NCBI RefSeq assembly: GCF_004010195.1
Contig: NC_057714.1
Span: 117,620,638 to 117,684,637 of the forward strand
Length of the DNA stretch: 64,000 nucleotides
Source of the DNA: Chiloscyllium plagiosum
Taxonomy: Eukaryota
Reading direction: 5' to 3'
Of this stretch, positions 1,650 through 62,430 are shown piece after piece (the first letter of the stretch is position 1; every line of letters starts with the position of its first letter). A program made the position numbers and the translations under genes. The notes under the pieces were generated by a model. The model saw only the letters and a list, made by a program, of their open reading frames with translations, was not told where the DNA came from and did not search any database.

Positions 1650-1775
1650 CGGAGATGCCAGTGTTGGACTGGGGTGTACAAAGTTAAAAATCACACAACA
1701 CCAGGTTATAGTCCAACAGGTTTAATTGGAAGCACACTAGCTTTCGGAGCGACGCTCCTTCATCAGGTGATTGTC
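1650..1775 (-). mobile_element. Penelope-like pLTR fragment with intact minimal hammerhead motif
   Basis: Reverse complement of about 1733-1770 reads CAC-CTGATGA-A-GGAGC-gtc-GCTCC-GAAA-GCTA-GTG. Same family as 15268-15509 and 58748-59140. Confidence 0.75.
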
Positions 1776-1856
1776 TTCTATGGTGCATTCTACGGTGCAT
1801 CTATTACAGTTGGTGAAGGTCATTGAGTCATAGAGATGTACAGCATGGAAATAGAC

Positions 1857-1972
1857 CCTTCGGTCCAACTCTGGATTAGTGGTGCTGGAAGAGCACAGCA
1901 ATTCAGGCAGCATCCGAGGAGCTTCAAAATCGACGTTTCGGGCAAAAGCCCTTCATACCTTCGGTCCAACTC
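1857..1972 (-). mobile_element. Short Penelope-like insertion into a CR1 tail, 15-bp TSD
   Basis: CCTTCGGTCCAACTC is duplicated at 1857-1871 and 1958-1972. The insert reads ATGAAGGGCTTTTGCCCGAAACGTCGA on the minus strand. Confidence 0.75.
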
Positions 1973-2054
1973 ATCCATGCTGACTAGATATCCCAACTTA
2001 ATCTAGTCCCACCTGGCCCATATCCCCCAAAACCTTCCTATTCATATAGCCATC

Positions 2055-2620
2055 CCTGGTCCTTATGGACTTACTGAATTTCCTTAGGCTCCTGAGGAGG
2101 AAAATCATTGGTGCCTTCTTGACCATCACATCTGCATGGGAGGTCCAGGATAGACTATTGCTGATCGTCACTCCGAGGGACTTGATGCTCTCGACCCTCT
2201 CCACTCTTCTGCTTGCTCCCTGAAGTTGATTCTCAGCTCTTTTATTTTGCTGTTGTTATCTTTGCACCATGACACCAAGCATTCTCTCTTGTTCCTGTAT
2301 TGTTTTGTCATTGTTTGATGTCTGGCCTACAATGGTGGTGGTATCAGTGAAGTTGTAGGTAGAGTTTGAATGGGATTCGGTCACCACAGTTGTGAATGTA
2401 CAGTGAGGAGCTGAGTATGTATCCTTGCAGGACGCCAGTGTTGAGGATCATCATCAAGGAAGTGTTGTTACCTATGTTTACTGATTGATTGCGGTCTATG
2501 GGTCAGGAAGCAGAGGATCCAGTTGCAGAGGGCAGAGCTGAGAACTAGATCTGAGTTTGGACAGTAGTTTGATTAGGATTATAGCTTGAAGATGGAGCTG
2601 TTATCGATAAATTGATACTC
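2055..2620 (-). mobile_element. Degenerate Rex1/Babar-type LINE RT fragment
   Basis: Translation ERVESIKSLGVTISNSLSWTSH..VKKA..FLLRSLRKF, homologous to the 6990-8070 copy. Confidence 0.6.
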
Positions 2621-3056
2621 AGCCAAGTCTGCATCCAATTAGCCAAATTTCCATGGGCTCGTACCCTCATTATCAGTCTCCCTTGCAGGACATTATCAAA
2701 AGCCTTGCTGAAGTTCAATGAGACTATGTCAAAAGCATTGCCCTCTTATGCATACCTGGTCACCTTTTTTTTTTCAAACAATTAAATTAAGATGGTCAAA
2801 CATCACCTCCTGTAACAAAATCCATGCTGAATGTCTTTGATTAATCCCTGCTTCTCCGAATGAAGATTAATTGTCAGAATATCTTCCAGTAGTTTTCCCC
2901 ATCACTGAGGTTAGACTGACTTGTGTTGACTGGTTCAGAGAATCTCTGCGACTCACGTGACTGATAAATGTGAAATGATTTTGACATGCAGAAAGAACTA
3001 TGTACACAAGCCAGCAGTCAGTGAAACACTCAACTTTATTTGAAGACAACAAACGA

Positions 3057-3640: not shown

Positions 3641-3644
3641 TTCT

Positions 3645-5033: not shown

Positions 5034-5211
5034 CCCCACTAACATTCCCCACCTCTACATTCCTGCTCTTTCACTGTAACCAATTTTCCCTTTTCTGCAC
5101 AAATACCCCCAGGTTCCGTTTTGATTTGCAGCTTTTCTCCATTTTAAATAATAGTACTTTATTCTTCCTTCCTAAGGATCAACAAATCTCTTTCAGCTTT
5201 AAATATACATG

Positions 5212-5433
5212 ATATGGAGGTGCCGGTGTTGGACTGGAAGGATAAGGTCAGAAGTCTCACAACACCAAGTTATAGTCCAGCGGGTCTATTGGAAATCACA
5301 AGCTTTCAGTGTTGCCCCTTCGTCAGCTGAACTGAAGTGATCACGTCACCTAATGAAGGGGCAGTGCTCTGAAAACTTGTGATTTCAAATAAACCGCTTG
5401 GACTAGAACTGGTGTCGTGTGCCTTTTGACTTT
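5212..5433. mobile_element. Inverted pair of Penelope-like pLTR ends with degenerate hammerheads
   Basis: The arms are reverse complements (acaacaccaagttatagtccagcggg / accgcttggactagaactggtgtcgt). Central CTAATGAAGGGGCAGTGCTCTGAAAACTTG. Confidence 0.65.
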
Positions 5434-6989: not shown

Positions 6990-8070
6990 TATACCCATGA
7001 CTGCGTTGCCAAACACCAGCCTACTGCCGTTTACACATTCACTGATGACACCACCATAGTTGGTTGAATCTCAGATGATGGGGAAACAGACTACAGGTGG
7101 AAGACCTGGAAAAATGGTGCCCTGAGAACAATCTAGCTTTCAATGCTGGCAAAACCAAGAAACTCATTATTGACTTTCGGCAGGATGTTACTCATACCCC
7201 CCCTACACATTAACAGTGGAGAGTGTCAAGCTCCTGGGAGTGGTCATCCACAACAAGCTTTCTTGGCCTCTTCATGTGGATGCACTGGTTACAAAGGCCC
7301 AACAACGCCTCTTCTTCCTCAGGCAGCTGAGGAAACTTGGCATGATGGCAAATACCCTTGCCAACTTTTATAGGTGCCATCAAGAGCATTCTGTCTGGAT
7401 GTATCACTACCTGGTATGAAAATGTGTTGCTGGAAAAGCGCAGCAGGTCAGGCAGCATCCAAGGAGCAGGAGAATCGACGTTTCGGGCATGAGCCCTTCT
7501 TCCTGAAGAAGGGTTCATGCCCGAAACGTCGAATCTCCTGCTCCTTGGATGCTGCCTGACCTGCGCTTTTCCGCCAACACATTTTCAGCTCTGATCTCCA
7601 GCATCTGCAGTGCTCACTTTCTCCTCACTACCTGGTATGGCAACTGTACCATTCAAGATCGGAGACGGTTACAGAGAGTGATGAACACAGCCCGGACAAT
7701 CACAAAGGCCAACCTCCCATCTATAGAATCCCTCTACCAGGCCCGCTGTCAAGGAAAGGCCGCCAGCATTCTCAAAGATCCATCCCACCCTGGCAATGTT
7801 TTTCTACAACCTCTACCATCGGGGAACAAGTACAGAAGCCTGAACACACACACCAGCCGGTTTCGAAACAGTTTCTAGTCAACTGTTGTTAGAATACTGA
7901 ATGGACTCTCAAACTCTTAACATTCACCCGTACCTGTGTTTTGGTTTTTGCTGCTGTTTACCTATCATTTACTTATCCATGCTACTTAACTCTGTCTTGC
8001 AAGCAATACAGGCTGATCACAAAGTTTTTCACTGTGCCTCGGTACACGTGACAATAAATTCAATTCAATT
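6990..8070 (+). mobile_element. Rex1/Babar-type LINE 3' fragment interrupted by a Penelope-like hairpin
   Basis: FTDDTTIVG, ESVKLLGVVIHNKLSW, KAQQRLFFLRQLRKL, TTWYGNCT, SILKDPSHPG..FLQPLPSG..YRSL...TSRFRNSF; tail aataaattcaattcaattc. Confidence 0.8.
7404..7639. mobile_element. Palindromic Penelope-like insertion with hammerhead core, 15-bp TSD
   Basis: TCACTACCTGGTATG at 7404-7418 and 7625-7639. Near-perfect inverted arms centred near 7501. CTGAAGA-A-GGGT-tcat-GCCC-GAAAC-GTC at 7503-7530. Confidence 0.85.
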
Positions 8071-9049: not shown

Positions 9050-11310
9050 CCTGATGTAAGGGTGCTGTATAAATGAACAGTTGTTGTCGCTGCTGCAGCT
9101 TCTCCTGCTCGCAGTGAACTCAGGGTCAGGTGAAGGACCAGGGCCTCACTAAAGGTGCTGTATAAATGAAGTTGTTGTTGTTGCTGCAGCACCAGCTCAC
9201 ACTGTGCCCAGAAGCAGGCTGAAGCTCACTAAAGGTGCTGTATAAATGAACAGCAGTTGTTGTTGTACCAGTTCCTGCTCACACTGTGCCCAGGGAGCGG
9301 GCTGAGGCTCACGAAAGGTGCTGTATAAATGAAGATTACTTGCTTGCTTACAGTGTTGAAACAGGCCCTTCGGCCCAACAAGTCCACACCGACCCGCCGA
9401 AGCGCAACCCACCCAGACCCATTCCCCTACGTTTACCCCATCACCTAATACTACGGGCAATTTAGCATGGCCAATTCACCTGACCTGCACATTCTTGGAT
9501 TGTGGGAGGAAACTGGAGCACCCGGAGGAAACCCACGCAGACACAGGGAGAATGTGCAAACTCCAGACAGAGTCGCCTGAGGTGGGAATTGAACTCGGGT
9601 CTCTGGCGCTGTGAGGCAGCAGTGCTAACCACTGTGCACCCATAAAAGCAGGAGATTGACTTCATTCTGCTCTGCTCTAGCAAACTGCAGTTGCAGGCTA
9701 AGGAAGGCAGTCCGTTTTGCCACAGGGGCATTTCCATTTGCTCTATTCATTCACAGAATGAGAGCAAAGGTGGCTGGCCCAGCATTTATTGCCTCTGTCT
9801 CAAGAGTAGTTGTTGTTGTACCAATTCCTGCTCATACTGTGCCCAGGGGCCGGGCCGAGGCTCACGAAAGGTGCTGTATAAATGAATAGTAGTTGTTGTT
9901 GTAGTACCAGCCACTGCCCACACTGTGGCGGGCTGAGGCTCTCTAAAGGTGCTGTATAAATGAACAGTAGTTGTTGTTGTAGTACCAGTCCCTGCTCACA
10001 CTGTGCCCAGGGGGCGGACTGAGGCTCACTAAAGGTGCTGTATAAATGAACAGTAGTTGTTGTTGTAGTATCAGTCCCTGCCCACACTGTGCCCAGGGGG
10101 CGGGCCGAGGCTCACTAAAGGTGCTGTATAAATGAACAGTAGTTGTTGTTGTAGTACCAGCCCCTGCCCACACTGTGCCCAGGGGGCGGGCTGAGGCTCT
10201 CTAAAGGTGCTGTATAAATGAACATTAGTTGTTGTTGTAGTACCAGTCCCTGCTCACACTGTACCCAGGGGGTGGGCTGAGGCTCACTAAAGGTGCTGTA
10301 TAAATGAACAGTAGTTGTTGTTGTAGTATCAGTCCCTGCCCACACTGTGCCCGGGGGGGGCGCACTGAGGCTCACGAAAGGTGCTGTATAAATGAACAGT
10401 AGTTGTTGTTGTAGTATCAGACCCTGCCCACACTGTGCCCAGGGGGCGGGCTGAGGCTCACGAAAGGTGCTGTATAAATGAACAGTAGTTGTTGTTGTAG
10501 TATCAGTCCCTCCCCACACTGTGCCCGGAGGGCGGGCCGAGGCTCACTAAAGCTGCTGTATAAATGAACAGTAGTTGTTGTTGTAGTACCAGCCCCTGCC
10601 CACACTGTGCCCAGGGGGCGGGCTGAGGCTCACTAAAGGTGCTGTATAAATGAACAGTAGTTGTTGTAGTACCAGTCCCTGCCCACACTGTGCCCAGGGG
10701 GCGGGCTGAGGCTCACTAAAGGTGCTGTATAAATGAACAGTAGTTGTTGTTGTAGTACCAGCCCCTGCCCACACTGTGCCCATGGGGCGGGCTGAGGCTC
10801 ACTAAAGGTGCTGTATAAATGAACAGTAGTTGTTGTTGTAATACCAGCCCCTGCCCACACTGTGCCCAGGGTACGGGCTGAGGCTCACTAAAGGTGCTGT
10901 ATAAATGAACAGTAGTTGTTGTTGTAGTATCAGTCCCTGCCCACACTGTGCCCAGGGCGCGGGCTGAGGCTCACTAAAGGTGCTGTATAAATGAACAGTA
11001 GTTGTTGTTGTAGTACCAGCCCCTGCCCACACTGTGCCCAGGGGGCGGGCTGAGGCTCACTAAAGGTGCTGTATAAATGAACAGTAGTTGTTGTTGTTGT
11101 ACCAGCCCCTGCCCACACTGTGCCCAGGGGGCGGGCTGAGGCTCACTAAAGGTGCTGTATAAATGAACAGTAGTTGTTGTAGTACCAGCCCCTGCCCACA
11201 CTGTGCCCAGGGGGCGGGCTGAGGCTCACTAAAGGTGCTGTATAAATGGACAGTAGTTGTTGTTGTAGTACCAGCCCCTGCCCACACTGTGCCCAGGGGG
11301 CGGGCTGAGG
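9050..11310 (+). repeat. 86-bp (83-88) tandem array abutting the RECQL4 promoter
   Basis: Unit AAAGGTGCTGTATAAATGAACAGTAG(TTG)nTAGTACCAGCCCCTGCCCACACTGTGCCCAGGGGGCGGGCTGAGGCTCACT. 17 units counted between 9867 and 11310, plus 4 diverged units at about 9058, 9151, 9231 and 9314. Confidence 0.95.
9334..9640 (-). mobile_element. HE1-type V-SINE inserted inside the 86-bp array
   Basis: Full head-V-domain-tail structure. It interrupts a unit after TATAAATGAA and the array resumes near 9805. Confidence 0.85.
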
Positions 11311-11720
11311 TCCACCTGCGCGCGCAGCCAGCTGCAGCTGAGCGGCCAGAGGCGGGAAGCTCGGATTCGAGAAGCTTCAGCCGGCCCCCGCTGTCCAGGG
11401 GAAGGCTGCAGCGGTTCCCCCGCGAGCGGGGGGCAAAGGGCAAAGGGCAAGGGGCGGGGCGCGGCGCGGCGCGGCGCTCTCCCGGGCTGGGTAAGGACGA
11501 TCATTTTCTCAACAACCCCCCCCCCCCAAAACAACCAAGGGTCCGCTCGGGGGCGCGCTGGGGACCGTCCAGGCTCCGCTCGGGGGACGCGCGGGGGGGC
11601 GCTGCTGCCGGGTTACCATGGCGACAGGGTGACCATGGAAGTGGGGAAAAAGGCGGGAGGAGGCCATTCGGCCCCTCGAGCTTGCTGCTCCGGTCATGGC
11701 TGGTCATCGGAGCCTCCCCA
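11311..11720. promoter_or_regulatory. CpG-island promoter of RECQL4
   Basis: Dense CpG. TGCGCGCGCA palindrome (NRF1-like) 11317-11326, GGCGGGAA (E2F-type) 11351-11358, GC box GGGGCGGGGC 11451-11460, RFX X-box-like GTTACCATGGCGAC 11612-11625. It is the only CpG island upstream of the first coding exon. Confidence 0.8.
11330..11490 (+). other. RECQL4: Probable non-coding first exon of RECQL4 (start approximate)
   Basis: Donor TGG|GTAAGG at 11490/11491 inside the CpG island. The ATG-containing exon has its own strong acceptor at 15684, so an upstream UTR exon is implied. Confidence 0.55.
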
Positions 11721-12076
11721 CCCCCTCCCACGAACTGTGTCCAACTCCTTTTATCCTCTACCGCCTTCTGTGACAGAGAGGCCATTGCACAGGCTCTGGG
11801 GTTACCCTCTGAATGTCTCCTCACCTCAGTCCTAAATGACTCCTCACCTCAGTCCTAAATGACTCTTCTCCATATCCTTACCCTGCAAGCCCAGAATCTG
11901 GGCTCCCCCACCATCAGGACCATCCTTCCTGCTTCACCCTGATAGAACTCAATAAATTCATCAGCCACAGCTTTGCCCATTCACTTCCCCCTCCCTACCA
12001 TGCTTCTAAGCTCCAGCGAATACAATTTTAAAATAATACAATCCTGACCAATCTCGTTGGTTCAGTTTATCTTTTT

Positions 12077-15267: not shown

Positions 15268-15509
15268 CTTGAAGTGTATAAAGTTAAAAATCACACAACA
15301 CAAGGTTATAGTCCAACAGGTTTAATTGGAAGAACTAGCTTTCAGAGCACTGCTCCTTCATCATGTGGTTGTCACAATCACCTGATGAAGGAGCAGCGCT
15401 CCGAAAGCTAGTGCTTCCAATTAAACCTGTTGGACTATAACCTGATGTTGTGTGATTTTTAACTTTGTACACCCCAGTCCAACATCAGCATCTCCATATC
15501 TTGAAGTGT
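15268..15509. mobile_element. Palindromic Penelope-like insertion with intact hammerhead on + strand, 10-bp TSD
   Basis: CTTGAAGTGT at 15268-15277 and 15500-15509. CAC-CTGATGA-A-GGAGC-agc-GCTCC-GAAA-GCTA-GTG at 15379-15413. Confidence 0.85.
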
Positions 15510-15815: not shown

Positions 15816-17171
15816 GTAGTCACTGAGTATAGAAAACCAATCACAAACACTTTATGATTGAAGTAATGGCTGTGAATGTCACTAGCTTCACAGTTTCCAA
15901 TAAGAGTTAGTTCCGGACAGGTTGCCAGCAGAAGTCATTTGAAACAGGAACAGAATAGCAGGAAAAACTAGGTAGGTCCCGCAGAAAAAGCAGTGTCAGT
16001 GTTTCTGGTCCAGTGATCCTTCTTCAGAACTTCCAAAAAATAGTCTAAGATCCCCTTACCTGTTGGAGTATTAAAATGAATTTGCGCTACCTTTCACAGC
16101 CTTGTGACATCCAGCAGTGTTTCAATCAGTGAATACAATTTTAAAATATTCACTGATCTGCATACTTGAAAAGGGCCTGTACAGTGTGTGAAAAGAATGA
16201 CCTTTTTAAACTGTGGGTTTTTTCACATAGTTATTCTGCAGCTATCTTCAAGAGAATTTATACATTTTCGAAAGGTGTAAATGGCTGACCACCTAATGAT
16301 GATGGACACATAAAGAAAATGTTACGTCCTCTAAATCTGCAATAGCTTGTATTAAATTGGAGAAATACCTTGCATTCATGTTTTATTCACTCATAGTCTC
16401 CGGTCTTTGGGTGTGAACCAAATTAGACTCACTAGTACCCTCGTTACCCTTGAGTTTTATTGTCTGAAAAACTATCAATAATCTTATCCTCACAATCCTT
16501 GTTTCTTCAATCTCTAAATAACTAGTTGAATTGGTATAATTGCACTCATGAAAAAAAAGAGTTCAATAAATTCTGCCATGCTGCTCCTCTATCTGAAATT
16601 TTGTTTTTGTTTTAGTCATAAATTCTTCGGCAATCCGAGTGTTACTATTTTGATGACTCTTACATTTATTGAATTTTAGACAAGAAATAGTTTTGGACCA
16701 AATCGATTTCCCTTCACCTTATTACTTCAAATAGCAGTATGCTCATGTCCTCCTTGTTCTAAGCTAATCTTGTGGTGGATGGTCTGTCATGATTGTATTA
16801 AATGATAGAACAGGCTTAACAGGCTGAGTGGCCTATTCCTGTTCCTATGTTCTGGCCTGGTACACCATTTAATTTGGTCTTCTGTTTCTTTTTCCCCCTG
16901 TAGGATTTGGCACATACCTGTGTTGCTAGTCATGCAAATCAATTTGGTCTCATCTGGAAATTTACAGACAATTCATGACGTTTTAAAACTATGACTTTAT
17001 GGAGGGAATGCAATATGTGGTGCAGATCAGGCTAATCTGGTATATGTGTGGCTGCTGCAAGTAGCCATTTGTAATAAGTATGATTTCAAATTGTGATCTT
17101 TTAATTTTGTGTAATAAAGCTGCTCTGTCTGTCCAAGAAAACTTACTGTTCCTCAACGTTTTCCTCTGTAG

Positions 17172-22852: not shown

Positions 22853-23431
22853 GTAAGTGTTACTTCCTTTGCTGCTTCCCACCCTCTGTATCACACGTAT
22901 GAAACCGTCTACCCTGACTAAGGAGGGTACAGTTGCAGTTACTTCAGTTGTGCTGTATCTATCTCTGTGGAACGTGTTGGTGTTGGATTATCCTGGTAAC
23001 ACGGCTGATATCAGACCCTTGGTAAACAGTCACAGGAACTTTGAAAAGCTCTCTTTCGAGAGGGAGTCAGGAGAGTGGAATGTGTTTTTTTTCTGTCACA
23101 AACTTGACACAGTCCACAAATTATTTGAAACCGGAGAACTTTAGGGGGTACTGGGAAGAAGGAAGTGAGTGAGTTTAGAGTTGGGTACTTTATCTGGAAG
23201 AATAAAACATAAAGTTGATGGGTCATTTGGCTTGTTTCCGTCATTCTCTTGATGAATTCAGAGAAAGTACAACAAAGCTGAGTACTGGAGCTGCAAAATC
23301 AGCGAGTTTAGTTACAAGAGACTACATAGTTTTAGCCGCTTGGTTTTAAATGTTTTGAACTTTAGTACAGCTGTACAAGTAAAAGACCAGAGCAAAAACA
23401 GTGAATGTCTTTTTTTTTAAATATCTGAAAG

Positions 23432-24651
23432 GAAAGGCCAATTTCTCTCCGTAAGTCGCTGACTTCAAGGAGGACGCAGATATCCAAAGAGATCGATGAT
23501 GGAGAGAATGGCCCAGTTGTTGGGGGACACCCTGTCACCCCCAAGCCTGCTGAAGATCTGCAGCTTGTATCTCAAGACTCTCCAGATGGATCTGATCAAC
23601 TAAAATTTCAGCATCCAGTCATGAAAGGTATTTCTCCATCAAAAGTGCTCCGAACCCAGACAAGGACTCCCCAGTCTATTAATAAACTACAGCAATTACA
23701 GCAGTGTGTGTCTCGGAGATTATCCTCGATTGATCGTGGCTGGTTGGACAGATGCCAGGAGAGAACACAACCAGATGTTGAATTGCCCATATTGGGCAGA
23801 CTTTCACTCCCAGCCAGTGGTAAATACAGTCTTGACTCTGATCATGGGAAACCTCCTTCATTCGGTGACTCTACTCCCCAAGTTGATCACAAGCCTCAAA
23901 ATGTGAATGACACAATACAGGTAGCCAGTGAGCAGCCTCTGCAACTAAGTGATTCCCCAACAGTCAATAAGGGGTCCTGTACAGTGACTGCTACATCTCC
24001 CTCAGCTGGTGATACACCCTCCTCATTGGGTAATGTCTCTTTAAAAGTTAGACATGATGAGCTATCCGTTTCCTCGAGTGATTTTCAGGATTCTGAAAAG
24101 CCTCCAGAATTAGGGAATGGCTATTTCCGAGATGATCATGCTTGCCAAAAATATGTTGACACGGGGAAAATGCAGATTCTAACAAGAACTGGTTTGGAAC
24201 ATCAATTGTACATTAATTCAGTGACCAGTGAAGAGAGAAATTGCAATGCCCCAGAATCTTTGCAGGAAAATTATGATGAAGGAGAGAGAGAGACTGATTG
24301 TGAGCAGTCTAAAGTGATAAATACTAGGAAAGGTACACAAGACCTAAAGAGAAGCAGTAAGAAGCGACGGAGAACATTGGCAGCAGACGGAGTGAGTGCT
24401 GACGCTTGTGAAGATCTCAATGGCAATGCCAAGAAACGCAGAAAAACAACTAAACCTTCAAACACTACCACAGCTGAGATGGTGAAGAAGCAAATCCTCA
24501 AAGCCAATTGCAGAACTGTGCTGGACGACAGCAGTCCACCAGCGAATGAGGATGAGGGGAAGCCAAAACCCGAGCTGCCAAAGGAGAATCTCTACGGAGA
24601 TGTGGAAGAAGGGAACATCTGTTCAGAGGCTCAGAAGAGCAGTGGCATGAG
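23432..24651 (+). CDS. RECQL4: RECQL4 coding exon 5 (1220 nt, largely disordered, basic NLS-like clusters)
   Basis: Open frame ERPISLRKS...KLQQLQQCVSRRLSSIDRGWLDRCQ (human [24 protein letters not shown])...KRSSKKRRR...KKRRK. aag acceptor after a T-run, AG|GTAGGT donor, phase 0 to 2. Confidence 0.88.
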
Positions 24652-24841
24652 GTAGGTACAGACATTGACCTAACAAGCAATATCAGAGGTATATGAGAAA
24701 GATGTACTCAATTTTGTTTTGCTTTCTATTTTAATGCTCGATTCAACGGAACAAATTCTTACTTTGGTTGCAGTTGTAGTTATCTATTACGAGACCAAGC
24801 CTAAGATGGAACTATTTGTCCTTCCCAGTTAGAAGAAATGC

Positions 24842-40775: not shown

Positions 40776-40928
40776 ATATCAAAGTTCTGAGGAAGGGTCA
40801 CTTGACCCAAAACGTTAACTCTGATTTCTCTCCACAGATGCTGCTGGGCCTGCTGAGCTTTTACCAGCAATTTCTATTTTTGTCTCTGATTTATAGCATC
40901 CGCAGTTCTTTCGGTTTTTAATATCAAA
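40776..40928 (+). mobile_element. Penelope-like pLTR fragment with mutated hammerhead
   Basis: GTT-CTGAGGA-A-GGGTCA-ct-TGACCC-AAAAC-GTT-AAC, flanked by ATATCAAA on both sides. Confidence 0.7.
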
Positions 40929-47240: not shown

Positions 47241-48277
47241 CTTAATTGGTGTCCTTTGTTTCAATCAAGCCTGTATCTTGTCCCCTAATTTTGAGTGTAA
47301 AATGAAAAGCTTTGACTCTGTTTTTAGTAATAATATATGATGGCATGTTTGTTTTCTCAAAGGTGTTGGTCAAATGCAATGAGGTGCGAATGCATCAATT
47401 GTACACGATCTTGGTTAGATACCATCTGGAGCTCACGTCTTTAGTTTTGAACATCAAGGGTCAGCAATCACTTACAGAAGTAGAATACTGTACATGTTGG
47501 AAATCCAAAATTAAAGTTGACAGTGCTGGAATAGCTCAGCAGGTTAGGTAGCATTTGTTAAGAGAAACAGAATCCATCTTTCAGATTGATGAACTTCCAC
47601 TGATTCTGATGGTGATTCGGATTCTGAATTTCCATTGATCTGAGGTACTTATCTCCACAGGTTCTGCCTAACCTGCTGAGTATTTCTAGCATTTTCTGTT
47701 GGGAAAGATTTGAAGGTTAAACAGATTCACTGGAATTATGCCTTTGATTAATTGGTCAAATTGAGGACAGAGTGAGCATGGCTGTACAGATATTCTTAAT
47801 CACTGTCTTCAGATGGATTATCATCATACCTCTGAAGCAGGTGAGCTTGAACTTGGGCCTTTTGGCTCAGAGGCAGGGACATGACCAGACCAGAAGAGCC
47901 CTTAATGATGGCTGCATATCCTTGATATATGATCATTTATGTGCTAAATTGTTTGACTAAAGAAAGACCAAGTGCTGGACACTTGACTATTCGAGCATAG
48001 GCAGTGCCAAAGCATTTGCATCCTATCACAAATCAGTCATTTTGAGATGAGGGAGGGTTATTGGAGGAATTTGAAAAGAAAATCAGTGACGCACTGAACA
48101 CTATTGTCATTTAGCTAGTAGGCTAATTAAATTGCTCCTTTTCTCAGTTATGTCAGAACTTCAGCCAGTGAATGAACAAATTCAATTTAAATTCCAAATG
48201 TCAGTAACACTAGAGAGAGTAACCTGCAGAGTTTCACTATGTTTATTCTTTAGTCAATTATTTTGTCTGATCTGCAG

Positions 48278-48460: not shown

Positions 48461-48788
48461 GTAAAGCCTGAGAGTCGGACTGTTAATAGCCCATTGTAGA
48501 AGGGAGCTTTTTAATCACTTACTGGATGTGGTCCTTGCTGGCAAGGATAGCATGAGAGCGAAAACCATCTGGTTCTTGTTAGTAACTGTGTAAAAATATG
48601 CAATAATATGGTTACGAAACGTTAACTCAGCTTTCTGTCCACAGATGCTGTCAGATCTGTTGAGTTTTTCCAACAAGTTCTGTTTTTGTTTGCAATAATG
48701 TGGTGTATGAGGGTGCAAGACCCAAATTAAATTGAAGTTAGACCAGATGAACATTGAACTTTTTAAAATGATGCTATTCTATAACCAA

Positions 48789-49010
48789 GGATTGGACTTA
48801 GATAAAGGCAAGTTACTGCGGATGCTGGAATCTGAAACCAAAAGAGAAAATGCTGGAAAATCTCAGCAGGTCAAATGCTGGAAAATCTCAGCAGGTCTGG
48901 CAGCATCTGTAAGGAGAGAAAAGAGCTGACATTTTGGGTCTAACTGACCCTTTGTCAAAGCTGTGACCTGCTGAGATTTTCCAGCATTTTCTCTTTTGGA
49001 TTGGACTTAG
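48789..49010. mobile_element. Penelope-like inverted insertion, 13-bp TSD
   Basis: GGATTGGACTTAG at 48789-48801 and 48998-49010. Inverted ccaaaagagaaaatgctggaaaatctcagcaggtca arms. Confidence 0.75.
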
Positions 49011-49192: not shown

Positions 49193-49392
49193 TATCACTG
49201 AGAATAGGAGAAAGAGAGGACTGCAGATGCTGGAGATCAGAGCTGAAAATGTGTTACTGGAAAAGTGAAGCAGGTCAGACAGATTCCTGAGGAAGGGCTC
49301 ATACCCGAAACATCGATTCTCCTGCTCCTTGGATGCTGCCTGGCCTGCTGCGCTTTGCCAGCAACACATTTTCAGCTCTATCGCTGAGAATA
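49193..49392. mobile_element. Penelope-like inverted insertion, 14-bp TSD (1 mismatch)
   Basis: TATC(A/G)CTGAGAATA at 49193-49206 and 49379-49392. CTGAGGAAGGGCTCATACCCGAAACATCGATTC. Confidence 0.8.
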
Positions 49393-50615: not shown

Positions 50616-52045
50616 TGTGACATAAGAGGGCACTGTTTACAGATATGGAAAACACTGCCTGGAATCAATTCAGTGGAGCCACTGCAAGTTGAATCCAGAC
50701 TGTCTGACAAGGATGTACTAGTAGTAACTCATTGACAAGTTCAATATTTTATATCAAGAAGCAGAAAACACCAAAAAGACACGTCCGTTGGCAGAAGGGT
50801 CAAGAATCAGGACATTGATTTAAGATAAATGACAGAAGAAATCGTGACACAAATATATTTTTACATGAGTGCTTATGATCTGGCATGCATTACCAGAGAG
50901 TGCAGCCAGATTCAACATAGGGTTCTAAAAAGAAATTGGATAAGCACTGGGAGAGAGAATTTGCCAGGTCATATAGAAGGAGGAGGGGAATGGGACTAGC
51001 TGAATTTATTTGGCAACTGTTATGTATGGCCTCTTTCTATGCTATAATCATTGAGAATGATAAATAGCTAGAATGTTGATTAGAGTGGTGGCAACAGTGT
51101 AGTGTCCCTGCAATGAATGAGAAAATTATTCTTGGTGAGAGTCTCGTTTCTGAAGATTTTTGACTCGTACTTATTGTGACTAATGGAATAATCTCAAACT
51201 CATACATGCAATCGAGCCAGAGTCTGCCACTCTGAACCTGAACAGTGCTTCGTCTACTTCAGAATGCCCTGGGAGAGGCAACACGTTGAAACATTTGAAC
51301 AACAAACTAAGCAAGTCATTTCATGCTGCCATTATGCAAAGGTAACACAGATAGTATTTTCCATTAATGGGGTGCTGTGTGCCCAAAAGGATGCTCTACT
51401 ACTCTTTACAGTTATATATGATTTGTATATTGCATCATTGTATATGAATTTCCGTGCCAATGCAATGCCAGGTCCATAGGCTGTACATCTTGCAGTTCCT
51501 TCAGCTGTTTGTAATAGACAGAGCACAAACTGTATCCAACCAACCTGTACTGGCAAAACCCAAAACCAAAGTCTACCTTTTGGAGTCAATAAAATGTGAA
51601 GCTGGAAAAACACAACAGGTCAGACATCATCGAAGGAGCAGGAAAGTCGATCTTTTGGGTCAGGACTGGGGAAGGAGACTTGGGAATAAATAGAGGGAGG
51701 AGAGTGGGGTTGGGGCTTGAGATTCTGTAACTGGGAAGCACTTGCTTGAATAATCCTGGCTATAAATGGCTCTACGAACAACCAATTTCAGATAACAAAT
51801 TAAGGTGGGAACAAAGCTCATTTATGCTCATTAGAAGTACATTGATTCATACACAAGAATCCAGACACTGCAAACAAGAATATGCTCAAGCCTTGTGCCT
51901 TTTTTGAACTATCCAAGAGCTCACTGAACCGACAGTTCCTTGCTGTGTTCTTCATGGAAATATTTCAGCCAATTAAGAGACAACTTGCTGACCAATCAGC
52001 ACCCTTTTCTCCAAAAGTATGAGTTTTTGTGATCATTTTGAAGTT

Positions 52046-52334
52046 TTGCATTCTTGCATGTCTAGAAGCATGGCATTCCAACCAGAACTCTATCAACAAA
52101 TACATTGATTTGGATCCCATTTACCTCCCCCTGAGAAAAAGAACAAGAAATGATGTCACCACAGGAAATGACATCACCAACCCAAGGAAACCTAAATACA
52201 TAATTAGAAAGTAATCCATACCACCAGTGTTTCACCCAAAGGCTCACTGATAATGTTACCTGGTATGGTGACAAAACGTCTGAAAACGAACCTTCCAGCT
52301 CAGCGAGCAAACCTACATCCTTGCATTCTTGCAT
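52046..52334 (+). mobile_element. Penelope (Poseidon-like) 3' end with decayed hammerhead, 14-bp TSD
   Basis: LEAWHSNQNSINKYIDLDPIYLPL (GIY-YIG C-terminus). TCA-CTGATAA-T-GTTACC-tggtat-GGTGAC-AAAAC-GTC-TGA. TTGCATTCTTGCAT at 52046-52059 and 52321-52334. Confidence 0.8.
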
Positions 52335-52711
52335 TGGTCCTAATGAGTGCAAGCCAGAAAACTTATGACTTTTTTTCACAACATTGAAGGTGGATTAGTG
52401 TTTTGTGAGGGAGGGACACATGTAGGATCCCGAGACAGATTTGATAGTTATCTCTGCAATTTATTTCTCCGCCCTGATGCCATTCATAACACTGTCTGCC
52501 GTTTTTCTTGAGGTCAATTAAACCAGTATCACTGGTGTACTTTACTGCCAATGATAGTCAGTGTATTTAATAAGAGTCTGAAATGAGTTTATTATATAGG
52601 ATTTTTTGCCTGTCCTGACACTGGGGAAAAATATGCTCACGTACAACTTGTTTTGGTTGTGGAGAAGGTTCTAAAGACTATTTTCTTGCAATTCCTCTAC
52701 ACAAAATGCAG

Positions 52712-52989
52712 CAAAAAAGAAGTTGAGGCGGCCTTTAAAATGGATTGCTGATTGCTACCATGCTGGAATGTCAGCCAGTGAACGGAGGAGAATTCAGAAC
52801 AACTTCATGAGTGGTCAGCTGCGTATTGTGGTGGCAACAGTGGCATTTGGCATGGGATTGGATAAGTCGGATGTCCGAGGAATCATACACTATAATATAC
52901 CAAAGGGCTTTGAGAATTATGTGCAAGAAATTGGCCGTGCTGGGAGAGATGGGAAGCCTGCCCATTGCCATCTCTTCCTCGACCCAGAC
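52712..52989 (+). CDS. RECQL4: RECQL4 coding exon 16 (motifs IVa, V, VI); last exon found in the window
   Basis: [41 protein letters not shown]...[24 protein letters not shown]|GTGAGT donor, phase 1 to 0. Confidence 0.97.
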
Positions 52990-53019
52990 GTGAGTACAAA
53001 CCTGTTTTGTATTAGTTAC

Positions 53020-53220
53020 GATGTGAGGTGCTGGTGTTGGATTGGGCTGGACAAAGTCAAGTCACACGACACCAGGTCATAGTCCAACAGGTTATATGAA
53101 ATCACAAGCTTTCAGAGCGCTGCTCCTTCACCTGATGAAAGGTCAGTGCTCTGAAAGGTTTGATTTCATATTAACCTGTTGGGCTGTAACCCGGTGTTGT
53201 GTGACTTCTGACTTTGTATT
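53020..53220. mobile_element. Inverted Penelope-like pLTR pair (degenerate)
   Basis: acaaagtcaagtcacacgacaccagg and ccggtgttgtgtgacttctgactttgt arms; central CACCTGATGAAAGG. Confidence 0.7.
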
Positions 53221-54742: not shown

Positions 54743-55371
54743 CTTGATACCCAACAATCAGAAGGTTTGAAGAATAATTGTATAGCTGTTAATATTTTCA
54801 TTTAATGAATTAAACATATTCACATTCCCTTCCTAAATTGCAATGGAAATTGCCTATAAAAGCTTGTCAGGCTGGCCATGTGTGTGAAAAGAGTACAAGC
54901 TTTAAATGCTTGTGGAAATAGGATTTAGGATAGAAATAAAAAAATGAATGAAGTAATATTTAGAGGTATTGAGTAATAAGTTAACTGCCTTGATTCAATC
55001 ACTCTTGTTAGATACTGGAGATTAGAACTGTACCTTTACATTGATTGCAGGGGAGCCAGAAATGGAAATTCACACTGATCAAGTTTAAGCTGTTCCATTT
55101 TGTAATTAAGTGTTAATTAATGTGAAAAAGTGCCTACAATGGAAGTAAATAGACTTCCCAGCTGATAACAAAGTAATTCATGTCCTAAAATAAAAACCCA
55201 GAGAAACCAAGTAATGATGCTGAAAGATTTGTTATTATGGTAAACATTTTCTTTGGAAAACATTTCTTAAAATACTGTATAAGTAATCTGCAGTATAAAT
55301 TTGAGTGTACTTTGTTTTAAAAAAGCTTGGATAAATCAAGTTTGTTTTCTAATATCAATGTAATCACATTC

Positions 55372-56489
55372 GCCCCTGGATGGTGTCCTGGCCTGTCTCA
55401 CTGGCCCTGTGGCTGGTGTCCTGGACCGTCCCTCTGGCCCAGTGGATGGTGTCCTGGCCTGGCCCTCTGGCTCTGTGGCTGGTGTCCTGTCCTGGCCCTC
55501 TGGCCCCATGGCCCATTGGATGGTGTCCTGGCCCGTCCCTCTGGCCCCGTGGATGGTGTCCTGGCCCGTCCCTCTGGTCCCTTGGCTGGTGTCCTGGCTT
55601 GACCCTCTGGACCGTCCCTCTGGCCCCGTGGATGGTGTGGCCTTTTGGCTCCGTGGATGGTGTCCTGGCCTGGCCTTTTGGCTCCGTGGCTGGTGTCCTG
55701 GCCTGTCCCTCTGGCCCCTTGGCTGGTGTCCTGGCCTGGCCCTCTGGACCGTCCCTCTGGCCCCGTGGATGGTGTCCTGGCCTGGCCCTCTGGCCCATTT
55801 AATGGTGTCCTGGCCCGTCCCTCTGGCCCCGTGGATGGTGTCCTGGCCCGTCCCTCTGGTCCCTTGGCTGGTGTCCTGGCTTGACCCTCTGGACCGTCCC
55901 TCTGGCCCCGTGGATGGTGACCCTCTGGACCGTCCCTCTGGCCCCGTGGATGGTGTCCTGGCCTGACCCTCTGGCCTGTCCCTTTGGCCCAGTGGCAGGT
56001 GTCCTGGCCTGTCCCACTGGTCCCGTGGATGGTGTCCTGTCCTGGCCCTCTGGCCTGTCCCTCTGGCCCAGTGGATAGTGTCCTGATCTGTCCCTCTGGC
56101 CCCATGGCTGGTGTCCTAGCCCGTCCCTTTGGCCCAGTGGCTGGTGTCCTGTCCTGGCCCTCTGGCCTTTCCCTCTGGCCCAGTGGCTGATGTCCTGGCC
56201 TGTCCCTCTGGCCCAGTGGATGGTGTCCTGGCCTGGCCCTCTGGCCCACTGGATGGTGTCCTGGCCCGTCCCTCTGACCCCGTGGATGGTGTCCTGGCCC
56301 GTCCCTCTGACCCCGTGGCTGGTGTCCTGTCCTGGCCTGTCCCTCTGGCCCACTGGATGGTGTCCTGGCCTGTCCCTCTGACCCCGTGGCTGGTGTCCTG
56401 TCCTGGCCTGTCCCTCTGACCCCGTGGATGGTGTCCTGGCCCGTCCCTCTGGCCCAGTGGATGGTGTCCTGTCCTGGCCCTCTGGCTGG
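55372..56489. repeat. About 33-bp GC-rich minisatellite beginning at the MBLAC2-like stop codon
   Basis: Units GGTGTCCTGGCC(C/T)GTCCCTCTGGCCC(C/A)GTGG(A/C)T with 5-nt and sub-unit length variants over about 1.1 kb. Confidence 0.95.
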
Positions 56490-57326
56490 TCATCTGGTCA
56501 AGTGCCTCCCCCTCAGTGCTACGTTTGCCAGGCAGCCGATGGCACTGGCCGTAATCCTGTGGCAGAGCCCAGCCCGGGCCAGGTAGTCGGAGGCCAGGCT
56601 GCGCATCGTGTCGGGCCCGAAGGGGTCGAAGTGCCCGGGCAGCACGGTGTGTACCTGGCCTTGGTCCAGCAGCTCCAGGAGGTGCCTGCAGCTCCGGCGG
56701 TAATGGCCCACATTGCTGTGGGGCAGCCAGTCAATGAGAGCCCCCTGGTACAGGGTGTCCCCGGTGAACAGGAGGCCGCGCCTGGCCTCATGGAGACACA
56801 CGCTGCCCCGGGAGTGCCCGGGGGTGTGCAGCACCCGGAGCTGCTGCGTGTCCCCCAGCTCCAGCAGGTCACCGTGCTCCAGCAGGAGGCCGGCCCTGAC
56901 GGCCTGTACCCGGTAACCGCGGGCCGTCCATCCTGGGCCTGCCCCGGGAGGCGGGCGCCTCAGCTCCCGCTCGCTGAGCCAGCTGACCGCCTCGAGCTGG
57001 TCGCCGCGGGCCAGCGCCTCCGCCTCGGCGCGGTGCACCGCCACCTGGCCGCCCTCGAAGTGCCGCAGGCCGCCCGCGTGGTCGAAGTGGACGTGGGTGG
57101 CGACGGCGAGCAGCGGCCGGTGGCCGGCGAGCAGGCCGTGCCGCCGCAGGTACTCGGGCAGGCTGCCCAGGCCCAGGCCCGTGTCCACCACCACGTCCCG
57201 ATCGGAGCCCCGCAGCAGCCACATGTTCGCCCGGTTCCCCGACTCGAAGTAACGCTCCCGGATCAGGTAGAGGCCGTCAGCCAGGCGCTGGTGGTAGAAC
57301 CACTCCCCGGTGTCCGTGCCCTCCAT
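56490..57326 (-). CDS. MBLAC2: MBLAC2-like metallo-beta-lactamase-fold protein (acyl-CoA thioesterase family), intronless, 278 aa
   Basis: Colinear over its full length with human MBLAC2 as I recall it: [53 protein letters not shown] (HxHxDH), [36 protein letters not shown] in strong Kozak context (GGGATGG). Orthologue versus paralogue is not determined. Confidence 0.9.
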
Positions 57327-57632
57327 CCCCCAGAGTGACCCCGGGGAGGGGGTGGCTCCCCCAGACACTGGCCCCTTACTCCATTCACCACAGACTTGGG
57401 GAACTCTTAATCACATCTACATCTCAAACCTGGGAATAATTAATACAAACTCATCCACTCGCAGCATTTCCCGGTGGAGTGCTGTGCTGTCAGCTTTATC
57501 ACTGCTCCCTTACTGAGCACAGTGTTAAATATCACACAACACCAGGTTACAGTGCAGTCCCCCGCCCCCTCTCCCTTCGCTCTTCTGCAGTTCCCGTGTT
57601 GTGCTCCTTACAAATCAACTCTGCACTCCAGA

Positions 57633-58499: not shown

Positions 58500-58625
58500 A
58501 GTGTATTCCAGAGATACAGATTCCTGATGAAGGGCTTTTGCCCGAAACGTCGATTTTGCTGCTCGTCGGATGCTGCCTGAATTGCTGTGCTCTTCCAGCA
58601 CCACTGATCCAGAAAGTGTATTCCA
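58500..58625 (+). mobile_element. Penelope-like mini insertion with intact hammerhead core, 11-bp TSD, nested in a CR1 tail
   Basis: AGTGTATTCCA at 58500-58510 and 58615-58625. CTGATGA-A-GGGC-tttt-GCCC-GAAAC-GTC at 58524-58551. Confidence 0.85.
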
Positions 58626-58747
58626 TGCACCCACCACTCTCTGACATCTCCCCTAAACCTTCCTTAAATCGCCTTAAAATTATGGTCCCTCGTGATAGAC
58701 ATTTCCGCCATGGGAAAACGTCTCTGGCTATCCACTCTATCTATGCC

Positions 58748-59140
58748 TCTCATCATCTTTAAACACCACACAACATTGTAGTCCAATGGTTTATTTGGGA
58801 GCACTAGCTTTCAGAGCGCTGCTCCTTCATCAGGTAACTAGTGGGACAGCCATCATAAGACACCAAATTTATAGCAAAAGATTAGTGTCATTCAACTGAA
58901 ATGATATATTAAACAAACCTAGCAATCTAGGTTTGTTCAATATATCACTTCAGTTTATTAAACAGTAATTTTTTGCTATACATGCTGTGTCTTATGGTCC
59001 TGCTCTACAATAACATGAAGGAGCAGCGCTCCGAAGGCTAGTGCTTCCAAATAAACCTGCTGGACTATAACCTGGTGTTGTGATTTTTAACTTGTCTACC
59101 CCAGATTAACATCAACTCCTCCACATCATCTCATCACCTT
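58748..59140. mobile_element. Palindromic Penelope-like insertion, 12-bp TSD (1 mismatch)
   Basis: TCTCATCA(T/C)CTT at 58748-58759 and 59129-59140. Arms are inverted about 58923. Minus-strand CTGATGAAGGAGCAGCGCTCTGAAAGCTAGTG at about 58802-58833. Confidence 0.8.
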
Positions 59141-59194
59141 GTACACCTCTATCAAGTCACCTCTCATCCCATTTCTCTCCAATGAGAAAATAAC

Positions 59195-60540
59195 CAGTGG
59201 AGTGCCACAACTGTGACCAGTGAGGTGCCACAAGGATCGGAGCTGGGTTCACTACTTTTTGTCATTTACATAAATGATTTGGATTCGAGCATAAGAGGTA
59301 CAGTTAGTAGGTTTGCAGATGACACCAAAATTGGAGGTGTAGTGGACAGTGAAGAAGGTTACCTCAGAGTACAACAGGATCTTGATCAGATGGGCCAATG
59401 GGCTGAGCAGTGGCAGATGGAGTTCAATTCAGATAAATGCGAGGTGCTGCATTTTGGGAAAGCAAATCTTAGCAGGACTTATACACTTAATGGTAAGTCC
59501 TAGGGAGTGCTGAACAAAGAGACCTTGGTGTGCAGGTTTATAGCTCCTTGAAAGTGGAGTTGCAGGTAGATAGGATAGTGAAGAAGGTGTTTGATTAGAT
59601 TCCCTACAGTGTGGAAACAGGCCCTTTGGCCCAACCAGTCCACACTGACCCTCCGAAGAGTAACCCACCCAGACCCATTTCCCTCTGGCTAATGCACCTA
59701 ATGCTGTGGGCAATTTAGCATGGCCAATTCACCTGACCTGCACATCTTTGGACTGTGGGAGGAAACCGGAGTACCCAGAGGAAACCCACGCAGACACAGA
59801 GAGAATGTACAAACTCCACACAGTCACCCGAGGCTGGAATCGAACCTGGGATCGTGGTGCTGTGTGGCAGCAGTGCTAACCACTGAGCCACCGTACCACC
59901 TCCTTTATTGGTCAGAGTATTGAGTACAGGAGTTGGGAGGTCATGTTGCGGCTGTACAGGACATTGGTTAGGCCAGTGTTGGAATATTGTGGGCAATTCT
60001 GGTCTCCTTCCTATCGGAAAGATGTTGTGAAACTTGAAAGGGTTCAGAAAAGATTTACAAGGATGTTGCCAGGGTTGGAGGATTTGAGCTATAGGGAGAG
60101 GTTGAATAGGCTGGGGCTGTTTTCCCTGGAGTGTCGGAGGCTGAGGGTTGACCTTATAGAAGTTTATAGAGGGGCATGGATAGGGTAAATAGACAAAGTA
60201 TTTTCCCTGGGGTGGAGGAGACCAGAACTAGAGGGCATAGGTTTAGGATGAGAGAGGGCATAGGTTTAGGGTGAGAGGGGAAAGATATAAAAGAGACCTA
60301 AGGGGTAACTTTTTCACGCAGAGGATGGTATCTGTATGGAATGAGCTGCCAGAGGATGTGGTGGAGGCTGGTACAATTGCAATATTTGAAAGGCATCTGA
60401 ATGAGTATATGAATAGGAAGGGTTTGGAGGGATATGGGCTGGGTACTGGCAGGTGGGACTAGATTGGGTTGGGATATCTAGTCGGCATGGATGAGTTGGA
60501 CTGAAGGGTCTATTTCTGTGCTGTACATCTGTATGACTTT
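59195..60540 (+). mobile_element. CR1 (HER1-like) RT to 3' end, with a nested HE1 SINE (-, 59592-59895)
   Basis: VPQGSELGSLLFVIYINDL, RFADDTKIGG, LYRTLVRPVLEYCGQFWSP, FFTQRMVSVWNELP. Confidence 0.9.
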
Positions 60541-60544
60541 ATAG

Positions 60545-62430
60545 CCTAGCTCCCTTTCTTCATAAGACATGCCCTCCAGTTCAGGCAGCATCCTGGTAAA
60601 TCTCCTCAGTGCTCTCCTGGTAAATCTCCTCTCAAGCTTCCACATCTTTCCTATAATGAGGCAACCAAAAAGGAACACAATATTCCAAGTATGGTCTAAC
60701 CAGGACTCTATAGATCTGCAGGGTTTAAATCAGTGGTGCTGGAAAAAAGGCGTCTATTCCTGATGAAGGGCTTTTGCCCAAAATGTCAATTTTCCTGCTC
60801 CTCTGATGCTGCCTGACCTGCTGTGCTTTTTCAGCACCACTCTGATCTAAACTCTGGTTTCCAGCATCTGCAGTCCTCACTTTGCTTCTATAGAGCTGCA
60901 GCATAACCTTACAGCTCTTAAAATCAATCCCCTGGCTAATGAAAGGTAACACACCATACATTTTCTTAACTTGGGTGACAACTTTGAGGGATCTGTGCTA
61001 TGGGTGTGGACTCCAAGATCCCTCTGTTCCTCCACTCTGCCAAGAATCCTGTCTTTAGCACTGTTTTCTCCATTCAAATTTGACCTTCCAAAGTGAACTC
61101 CATCTGCCACTTTTCAGCCCAGTTCTGCATCCTGTCAATGTCCTGTTGCAACCTATAGAAGCCTTCCACACTATCCACTATTCCACCAACCTTCGTGTCA
61201 TTGGCAAACTTACTAACCCTCCCTTCCACTTCCTCATCCAAGTCATTTATAAAAATCACAAAGAGCAAACGTCCCAGAACAGATCCCTGTATATCACCAC
61301 TGGTTGTCAAGCTCCCGGCTGAATACTTTCCATCTACCACCACTCTCTGTCGTCTATGAGCTAGTCAATTCTGTATCCAGACAGCTAGATTTCCCTGTAT
61401 CCCATGCCTCCTTACTTTCTGAATCAGCCTACCATGGGAAACCTTGCTAAAATCTAAATGTGCCACATCCACTGCTTTACCGTCATCAATGTGTTTTGTC
61501 ATATCCTGAACAAATTTGGTAAGGCTTGTGAGGCATGACCTGCAACCCCCCCACCCCACCCCAGCCAAAGCCATGCTGACTATGTCTAATCGAACAGTAG
61601 TTTTCCAAGTAGTCATAAATCCTGTCTCTCAGAATCCTCTCCAGTACTTTGCCCACCACAGACATGAGACTGACTAGTCTGTAATTCCCAGGATTATCCC
61701 TATACCTATCTTGAAGAAGGGAATAACATTTGCCACCCTCCAATCATTTGGCACTATTCCAGTGGAGAGTGAGGATGCAAAGATCATTCCCAAGATGCAG
61801 CAATCTCTTCCCTCACTTCCTGCAGTAACCTAGGGTATATCCCATCTGGTCCCATTTATTTATCATCAATCATGGTGTTTCAAACTTTTCAGCACATCCT
61901 CCTTAACGTCAACCTGTTTGAGCTGTTTCATGCTGTCCTCAGAAATGTCAAGGTCCCTCTCAGTAGTGAATACTGAAGCAAAGTATTCATTAAAGCTTCC
62001 CCTACCACCTCTGACTCCAGACACAAGTTCCCTCCACTACCCTCACTCTGGCCATCCTCTTGTTCCTCACATAAATGTAGAGTTTTGAATACAAATAATG
62101 ACCCAGCTTCTATAGCTCTCTGCAGTAAAGAATTCCACAGAATCATTACCCTCAGAAGAAATTCATCCTCATCTCTGTTGTAAATTGGTGACCTGTGATT
62201 GTGAGATTATGCCCTACAGTCTTCAACACTTCCACAATGGGAAACAACCTTTTTGCATCTACATTGTCAAGTTCCCTAACAGGGTTGTATGTATCAATAA
62301 GGTCACCCTTCATTATTCTATATTTCAACTCATAAGAAAATCCCACCATCCTAGTATCAGCCTCGTGAACCATCCCTGCACTGCCTCCAATGCTAGTATA
62401 ATTTTCCTTATCTAAGTTTTTCAGCTGTGA
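60545..62430 (-). mobile_element. Decayed CR1 copies, with a Penelope-like insertion at 60707-60901 (15-bp TSD, 1 mismatch)
   Basis: NPGNYRLVSLMSVVGKVLE, QGSVLGRLLFVIFINDL, KFANDTKVGG. TCTATAGA(T/G)CTGCAG at 60707-60721 and 60887-60901. Confidence 0.8.

Follow-up and report, generated by a model that had tools for sequence, protein, structure and literature searches.

Background

Minimal hammerhead ribozymes in the pseudo-long terminal repeats (pLTRs) of metazoan Penelope-like elements (PLEs) were described in 2014 (Cervera and De la Pena, PMC4209133), and that paper, in its accessible portions, also noted single and opposite-strand minimal hammerheads from truncated elements. Here we report the analysis of a 64,000 nt stretch of the Chiloscyllium plagiosum genome (positions 117620638-117684637 of contig NC_057714.1 in a 3.56-Gb assembly; hereafter the window), for which an initial annotation had proposed a dense population of such ribozyme-bearing insertions. 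Besides the 2014 motifs, three described systems are close to these insertions, each cited here from the accessible part of its source. PLEs that carry an endonuclease (EN+ PLEs; Craig et al. 2021, PMC8557442; Arkhipova et al. 2013, PMC3846280) have TATA- or initiator-like signals in a pLTR. For PAc, the Poseidon element of the green anole (Frangieh et al. 2024, PMC11167929), it was found in vitro that reverse transcription starts internally at two adjacent sites matching the tail ends, that the template's 5′ end determines how long the product is, that the protein requires RNA downstream of the reverse transcription start (the first 172 nt of the open reading frame, ORF) and that the ribozyme cuts only with the protein. 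Non-LTR retrozymes are defined by tandem units that each contain a ribozyme, and by circular RNA (PMC7229834; Li et al. 2026, bioRxiv 10.64898/2026.07.22.740005).

The ribozymes analysed here resemble the minimal hammerheads of 2014 in their type I core, with an extra base before stem II, a G10.1-C11.1 pair, a palindromic 15.2-16.2 and no loop 3, and also in forming several consensus families per genome that occur mostly as single motifs with some opposite-strand pairs. They differ in abundance, since up to ~9,000 motifs per vertebrate genome were reported there, with no shark named in the accessible text, whereas one exact 41-mer alone has 2747 copies here; nor does that text describe the fixed 5′ start, cap G and polyadenylation (poly(A)) site that we consider below. 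As in PAc, the ribozyme stands at the junction of pLTR and ORF, two 3′ ends lie 30-40 nt apart and RNA reads ending at the cut are absent. Family C, one of the four families distinguished below (A to D), has the PAc layout, with its ATG at the start of ribozyme stem II as read from 3′ copies; families A and B, and by its likeness to A also D, differ from PAc in the Neptune cysteine linker and in an ATG at or after the tail end, and a run-off class of copies is not reported in the accessible account of PAc. With EN+ PLEs the insertions share 5′ truncation, an inverted 5′ arm, a one-sided tail of 30-40 bp, target site duplications (TSDs) and solo pLTRs, but truncation is variable there, according to the parts of those papers available, whereas the modal Neptune copy here has a fixed start at the ribozyme. 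Like non-LTR retrozymes the copies are non-coding, carry a type I hammerhead and are related to the pLTRs of PLEs; they are, in contrast, single or head-to-head, and because retrozymes are defined as tandem units these insertions are not retrozymes. Hammerheads at Penelope termini, the tail, the inversions and the TSDs are already known, and a literature search, with most subscription papers outside it, found no paper on a fixed, cap-marked class of short copies or on polyadenylation beside the ribozyme. The insertions are the hammerhead-bearing termini of four protein-coding Penelope-like families, and we regard it as reasonably likely that the largest class of Neptune-type copies derives, by run-off copying, from the capped 5′ leader of the element messenger RNA (mRNA).

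Hammerhead-bearing insertions and their parent elements

By BLAST against parent (longer) copies of each family, the window was found to contain 37 fragments representing 26 insertions, of which 15 are single, 10 are head-to-head and one is of another kind. About 20 short insertions of 100-400 bp had been proposed at first; their existence was confirmed, although the number is higher and many copies are shorter than 100 bp. The clear TSDs of 8-16 bp that had been noted were recovered at 13 of the 25 testable insertions (the one at the window edge being left out), against 1 of 25 shifted controls. Exact cores, consisting of CUGANGA, a stem II of at least 3 pairs and GAAA, number eight in the window and 0-2 in each of eight shuffles, and motif scans found a complete or mutated core at every site initially annotated as a ribozyme. 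A relaxed core scan returned 20 matches, part of which must be due to chance because the shuffles yield 2-10. An Rfam scan of the window gave no match to a hammerhead family and 18 weak matches, mostly to microRNA-like hairpins; a weak U6 match at 36894-36943 was not joined to any element and was set aside.

For comparison with the rest of the genome we used a sample of one hundred 10-kb stretches at fixed positions (962,638 non-N bases, ~1 Mb), after masking a short interspersed element (SINE) in one B reference and an inverted arm in one C reference. The sample holds 229 insertions (158 single, 67 head-to-head, 2 direct pairs, 1 complex and 1 tail-to-tail), which extrapolates to ~0.8 million insertions in the genome, and TSDs were detected at 82 of 218 insertions compared with 4 of 207 controls. 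Each family has two modes of 3′ end about 35-40 nt apart, at ~+60/+95 from the predicted ribozyme cut site in A and B and at +40/+75 in C, and these are the known Penelope-like tail. The four families cover 7.35% of the window and 7.49% of the sample, so that the suggestion of a major intron component holds only in the sense of a cover of ~7.5% wherever DNA was sampled; the insertion count of the window is on the high side (resampled median 14, 99th percentile 27).

Genome searches with the window copies recovered longer copies of every family, and all four families are termini of protein-coding PLEs residing in the same genome. In family A the parent (L128) has a 561-aa open frame with reverse transcriptase (RT; Pfam RVT_1, E 1.4e-8) and GIY-YIG endonuclease (EN; E 4.9e-4, under the cut-off) domains, followed by the A ribozyme. 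The family B parents (L245, with 480 aa, and L255) have RT and GIY-YIG in frames of 474-480 aa upstream of the B ribozyme, which was located downstream on the same strand at 21 of 25 B-type endonuclease loci, and the family C parents (L133, with 341 aa from RT to EN, and L135) have RT-EN frames followed by the C ribozyme. Parents with both domains, as anticipated in the initial annotation, were thus found for A, B and C, while for D there is only a decayed copy (L116) with an endonuclease region upstream of the ribozyme. The claim of very abundant Penelope-type minimal hammerheads from at least four families was upheld. No uninterrupted full-length ORF was found among the long copies seen, all of which are broken, gapped or truncated. 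Ribozyme and tail are also present at the ORF start, giving a pLTR at both ends, with the 5′ end shown for A1 and B only: the A1 tail continues into the ORF start in L337 and L349, and the ATG of the B ORF directly follows the long tail in L366. When complete 5′ ends were sought, the leader was reached at 2 of 30 A1 loci and in 1 of 12 B stretches, with an N gap interrupting one of the three, and L349, the only near-full-length copy that shows its 5′ end, begins in the first bases of the ribozyme. Long inverted arms often lie at N gaps of the assembly (window 38886-39588; L121-L126), and full-length elements are probably under-assembled in this genome.

A cysteine linker, Cys-X2-5-Cys-X-X-Cys, separates RT and EN in the A and B parents, which are 29% identical over 449 aa; translations of family C are without it and match A weakly. 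This linker is the defining feature of Neptune elements (PMC8557442, accessible part), and by sequence we assign A, B and D to a putative Neptune type, D being placed by its likeness to A, and C to a putative Poseidon type. We also noted C copies that are repeated together with their flanking DNA, 1.8 kb apart (L157:814 and 2573) and 3.5 kb apart (L139:4233 and 7732), and that are local duplications or partial tandems. Several A1 copies contain an internal jump that skips the ribozyme, from the 3′ untranslated region (UTR) to the tail or the ORF N-terminus (window 24852-25044; L032-L038; L326, equivalent to L127:2430-2560), which suggests template switching around the ribozyme.

A fixed 5′ start in the Neptune-type copies

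Among 268 A, B and D fragments of the sample, 118 (44%) start between -47 and -24, just 5′ of ribozyme stem I, 58 start beyond -60, 40 at -23 to -6 and 16 within 5 nt of the cut. Of 26 family C fragments, one starts in the -47 to -24 zone, 21 beyond -60 and one within 5 nt of the cut. In A1 the start mode is a single base four nt before the core (-32 from the cut), used by 22 of 73 short copies (stubs); the starts of A2, B and D are at BLAST resolution only. The base before the A1 start is distinctive in the genome as a whole, with 2747 exact matches to a 41-mer that has G there against 1994 to a looser 35-mer that has A or T, so that G exceeds what a GC content of 43% would predict by a factor of at least 3.6; the first 100 matches listed of the A/T class comprise 68 A and 32 T. 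Parental sequence upstream of the start was present at none of 30 G loci and at one of 30 A/T loci. Extra G residues at the 5′ junctions of full-length L1 copies have been ascribed to the cap (PMC11702581, in its available part). A cDNA ending in C would pair preferentially with a target G and give the same picture, which the data do not prove. In the B parent a TATA box (L255:2352-2358) is located 32 nt before the -37 start. At a similar distance, families A and D contain weaker stretches, found by eye, that we take to be TATA-like and initiator-like.

On the reading that we favour, RNA polymerase II would start a few bases before the ribozyme, as the TATA spacing in B suggests. The element protein would nick the target DNA and, by analogy with the anole element, reverse transcription would begin internally, at either of the tail sites. 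If the mRNA is linear and capped, only 90-135 nt would separate the promoter-proximal tail site from the cap, so that the enzyme would run off at the 5′ end, in many cases adding a G by copying the cap, and the resulting stub would be sealed in either alone or head-to-head with a second stub. For B, polyadenylation upstream of the tail sites, ~30 nt past the cut, would leave only the promoter-proximal site on the processed mRNA. Stubs, having neither the upstream promoter nor the downstream protein-binding RNA, would be dead by-products whose ribozymes decay. The Poseidon-type copies of family C are ordinary variable 5′ truncations. We infer every step from promoter to integration for these families.

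Several observations weigh against this reading. The start is sharp to the base in A1 only: 26 short B copies are spread over 10 positions, and the numbers for D and A2 are small. Families A1 and B were mapped to long references, but for A2 and D some of the references were short, and the pile of starts may be inflated as a result. The G is often not demonstrably untemplated: 7 of 9 single G copies have the same base next in the duplicated target and, by eye, ~10 of 21 inverted copies could have taken it from the other arm. Pooled copies taken without selection have G before the A1 start in 10 cases, T in 9 and A in 3. Family A has only a weak TATA-like stretch by eye, and L349, with the sole near-full-length 5′ end, begins 3 nt inside the modal start. 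The Drosophila Penelope promoter is internal and TATA-less, with a start ~120 nt before the ribozyme (PMC2377424 and PMC4209133, accessible parts). No poly(A) site was seen for A1 in the RNA reads described below, in which no pile of molecule starts or ends was seen either.

The same start data could be produced by a truncation hot spot, in which ordinary 5′-truncated copies of long templates pile up because the RT stalls or switches template once past the folded ribozyme, or because the endonuclease cuts the intermediate, and acquire the G by microhomology. PLE copies are as a rule heavily truncated at the 5′ end and often carry an inverted 5′ arm (PMC8557442, available part), the anole enzyme favours ATT, where the A1 stubs start (PMC11167929, available part), the G is usually common to the target or the other arm, and the starts tail off through the ribozyme, 40 of 268 lying at -23 to -6. 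We nevertheless consider such a hot spot rather unlikely, as the pile lies beyond the structure, on its 5′ side, and is missing in C, whose stem II is equally strong; the B and D starts are not ATT, microhomology alone gives no reason for a G at an untemplated position, and the TATA spacing in B speaks against it.

RNA reads and the fate of the ribozymes

The RNA data come from a near-identical organism, as single-cell poly(A) reads (run X17, of which ~2% was read), from a library that can neither show start sites nor exclude cleavage. Over A1 the read depth rises about tenfold at the ribozyme on both strands, and 96 reads break off before the same modal start base into diverse flanks, as expected from genomic stubs within host transcripts. 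For B the depth is strand-biased and flat across the cut, and A-tails were found behind L255:2449 (372 reads) and 2452 (489 reads), 12 and 15 nt past a poly(A) hexamer; these sites lie ~30 nt past the cut and upstream of both tail ends. None of the six best loose ends of contig set X13 bears an A-tail at the B site. Host transcripts with their ends in B copies may be the source of the B poly(A) reads, a further point against the favoured reading.

Presence of stubs in poly(A) RNA would also fit self-propagating, non-autonomous mini-elements of a SINE-like kind, of which internal-promoter transcripts are copied in trans by the parent protein, and so would the fixed unit length and the ~0.8 million insertions reached by extrapolation. 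An internal promoter is known in Drosophila Penelope (PMC2377424), and non-autonomous PLE derivatives have been described (PMC8557442; bioRxiv 10.64898/2026.07.22.740005), according to the available parts of these sources. The stubs, however, are without the upstream TATA box of B and without the downstream RNA that the anole protein needs (PMC11167929, accessible part), and flanks shared with the 3′ ends of stubs are absent, with at most 2 cases among 36-182 per family, one pair being an unrelated flanking repeat. Moreover, 18-33% of copies carry a mutation at core position G12, part of a CpG, which is what DNA in decay would show. Taken together, we find propagation of the stubs by themselves improbable. 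The proposal of non-coding spread is accurate in that most copies are short non-coding pieces, many of them Neptune-type with a fixed 5′ start, but the source appears to be coding elements.

A last alternative invokes the ribozymes directly, as in retrozymes or other cleavage-made units, where cutting would free unit RNAs or circles that are then copied back. Core and minimal stems are intact in 65 of 187 aligned copies, some tandem retrozymes do occur in a chondrichthyan genome, and in 16 of 268 fragments the start lies no more than 5 nt from the cut. Against this, the window contains no direct tandem insertion and the sample at most 3 in 229 (2 pairs and 1 complex), the cut site is internal to the stubs and is not their start, and read depth is flat across the cut with no pile of ends. 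We reject the retrozyme reading on the tandem count, reject cleavage-made 5′ ends as the main class, and hold such an origin to be highly improbable. Head-to-head arms put the two ribozymes on opposite strands and so do not permit dimerisation in one RNA. The description of the insertions as retrozyme-like units accordingly falls, each family being the terminus of a coding element and C being variably truncated at its 5′ end.

The majority letters of all six subfamilies give the 11-nt hammerhead core, with stem II, an NUH triplet (GUC, CUA or GUU) and the palindromic 15.2-16.2 of a minimal type I ribozyme. Stem pairs were counted per family by position, as MAFFT alignments of the window ribozymes were out of register between families. 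The compensatory stems of the initial annotation were recovered between subfamilies, for both stem I and stem II, but within families two-sided changes are rare (0-4 per pair), and stem I of family A is weak, with two pairs and then a U-U mismatch. An A-G mismatch in the middle of stem II is common to all six C2 copies (including window 39478, L145, L191 and L236), and is thus a family trait rather than decay. Non-CpG core sites deviate from the majority less often than tail sites (5.0% versus 7.2%, p 0.001), a difference that we read as constraint on the source lineages, together with tail differences between subfamilies, rather than as selection acting on the copies. Single-strand folds of seven monomers were no better than shuffles, bar one (z -2.05), which is expected for minimal hammerheads and was not used as evidence. 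No pile of read ends marks the cut in this one fragmented poly(A) library, which cannot exclude cleavage.

Distribution of copies in the window

Coordinates in this section are those of the window, with stub positions counted from the predicted cut site, and head-to-head insertions occupy both strands. Family B is represented by a leader-length stub on the minus strand at 1646-1774 (-37 to +91), with an intact core at 1742-1766, and by two head-to-head pairs, one at 15274-15503 with both arms from about -37, a core at 15382-15406 and a 14-bp TSD, the other at 58763-59128 with longer arms (to -115 and -145) and a 12-bp TSD. Two further head-to-head pairs belong to B2, at 5208-5433 (13-bp TSD) and 53023-53218 (8-bp TSD).

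Four head-to-head pairs are of A1: 7417-7626, with one short-tail and one long-tail arm, a core at 7503-7526 and a 15-bp TSD; 21306-21455, with a 16-bp TSD; 45008-45219, in which the first core box is lost; and 49206-49379, with a core at 49287-49310, a G preceding the start base and a 14-bp TSD. Two A1 pieces are on the plus strand. The first, cut by the window edge, is a long 3′ piece at 1-323 consisting of 3′ UTR, partly deleted ribozyme and tail, and the second, at 24852-25044, joins a GIY-YIG C-terminus to the tail and has a 13-bp TSD. The A2 copies include leader-length plus-strand stubs at 58516-58611 (intact core at 58524-58547, G before the start base, 11-bp TSD) and 60752-60884 (G12 mutated), a plus-strand stub at 1372-1463 that starts inside stem II (-18 to +74), a minus-strand stub within another repeat at 1872-1956 (-25 to +60, 15-bp TSD) and a minus-strand fragment at 51591-51659.

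Family D has a leader-length stub on the plus strand at 40778-40920, with a core at 40787-40812 in which G12 is mutated and an 8-bp TSD, and a head-to-head pair at 27587-27766. The other D copies are fragments: an old one at 15983-16031 on the minus strand, two old ones on opposite strands within 47487-47700, and those within 48615-49002 (48615-48689 on the plus strand and a hairpin at ~48815-49002). Two old tail fragments of A/D type lie on the minus strand within 36420-36724, at 36420-36453 and 36666-36724.

Only two insertions are of family C. The C motifs near 38930 and 39478, at first listed separately, are the two arms of one C2 (Poseidon-type) head-to-head insertion at 38886-39588 that spans an N gap and has a 13-bp TSD, with cores at 38933-38962 on the minus strand and 39478 on the plus strand. 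The second is a 5′-truncated C1 copy at 52062-52320 on the plus strand, with a GIY-YIG C-terminus, a decayed core at 52247 and a 14-bp TSD; the core has one change in the copy at 39478 and two in that at 52247. Both of the GIY-YIG C-termini first seen at 24855 and 52060 were confirmed, but the ribozyme of the copy at 24855 has gone by internal deletion.

Host genes and other repeats

Exons of a RecQ helicase gene, which we take to be RECQL4-like, are spread over ~22600-53080 of the window on the plus strand (Pfam DEAD and Helicase_C), with a long exon at ~23429-24652, a DEAD-box exon near 35900 and a Helicase_C exon near 52700-53000. Plus-strand B and B2 copies in which a poly(A) hexamer follows the ribozyme occur at 5350-5433, 15382-15503 and 59015-59128 of the window, and those plus-strand copies of B or B2 that lie inside the helicase gene could act as candidate intronic poly(A) sites, to judge from their sequence. 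A nested intronless open frame of 306 aa at 56493-57410 on the minus strand has a metallo-beta-lactamase fold (Pfam Lactamase_B, E 1.6e-22) and is presumably MBLAC-like; it is GC-rich, antisense to the helicase gene, and adjoins a 33-bp minisatellite at ~55350-56480. A tandem array of ~16 copies of an 86-bp unit (9770-11300) directly precedes a GC-rich stretch at ~11300-11850 that looks like a promoter island.

Implications for Penelope-like elements

The insertions may bear on how PLEs start their RNA, on the reason for the weak ribozyme and on the origin of the inverted ends; only one element has been reconstituted in vitro. With some hesitation we lean towards a wider view, in which the capped Neptune mRNA would start with a hammerhead, and internal RT initiation in its leader would give a strong-stop-like cDNA that integrates by itself. 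Hundreds of thousands of cap-to-tail fossils would then map the promoter of each family and explain the head-to-head 5′ arms. The poly(A) site of B, upstream of the 3′ tail, would mean that a full-length copy can be made only from a read-through, tandem or circularised template, and the ribozyme would thereby have a job. If the run-off reading is wrong, the insertions are a repeat of a known kind, although an abundant one. Through family B, poly(A) signals in use in RNA are scattered over the genome. If the run-off reading is true, the start site, the two RT start sites and the B poly(A) site can be read from the genome, and would supply exact templates for work in vitro.

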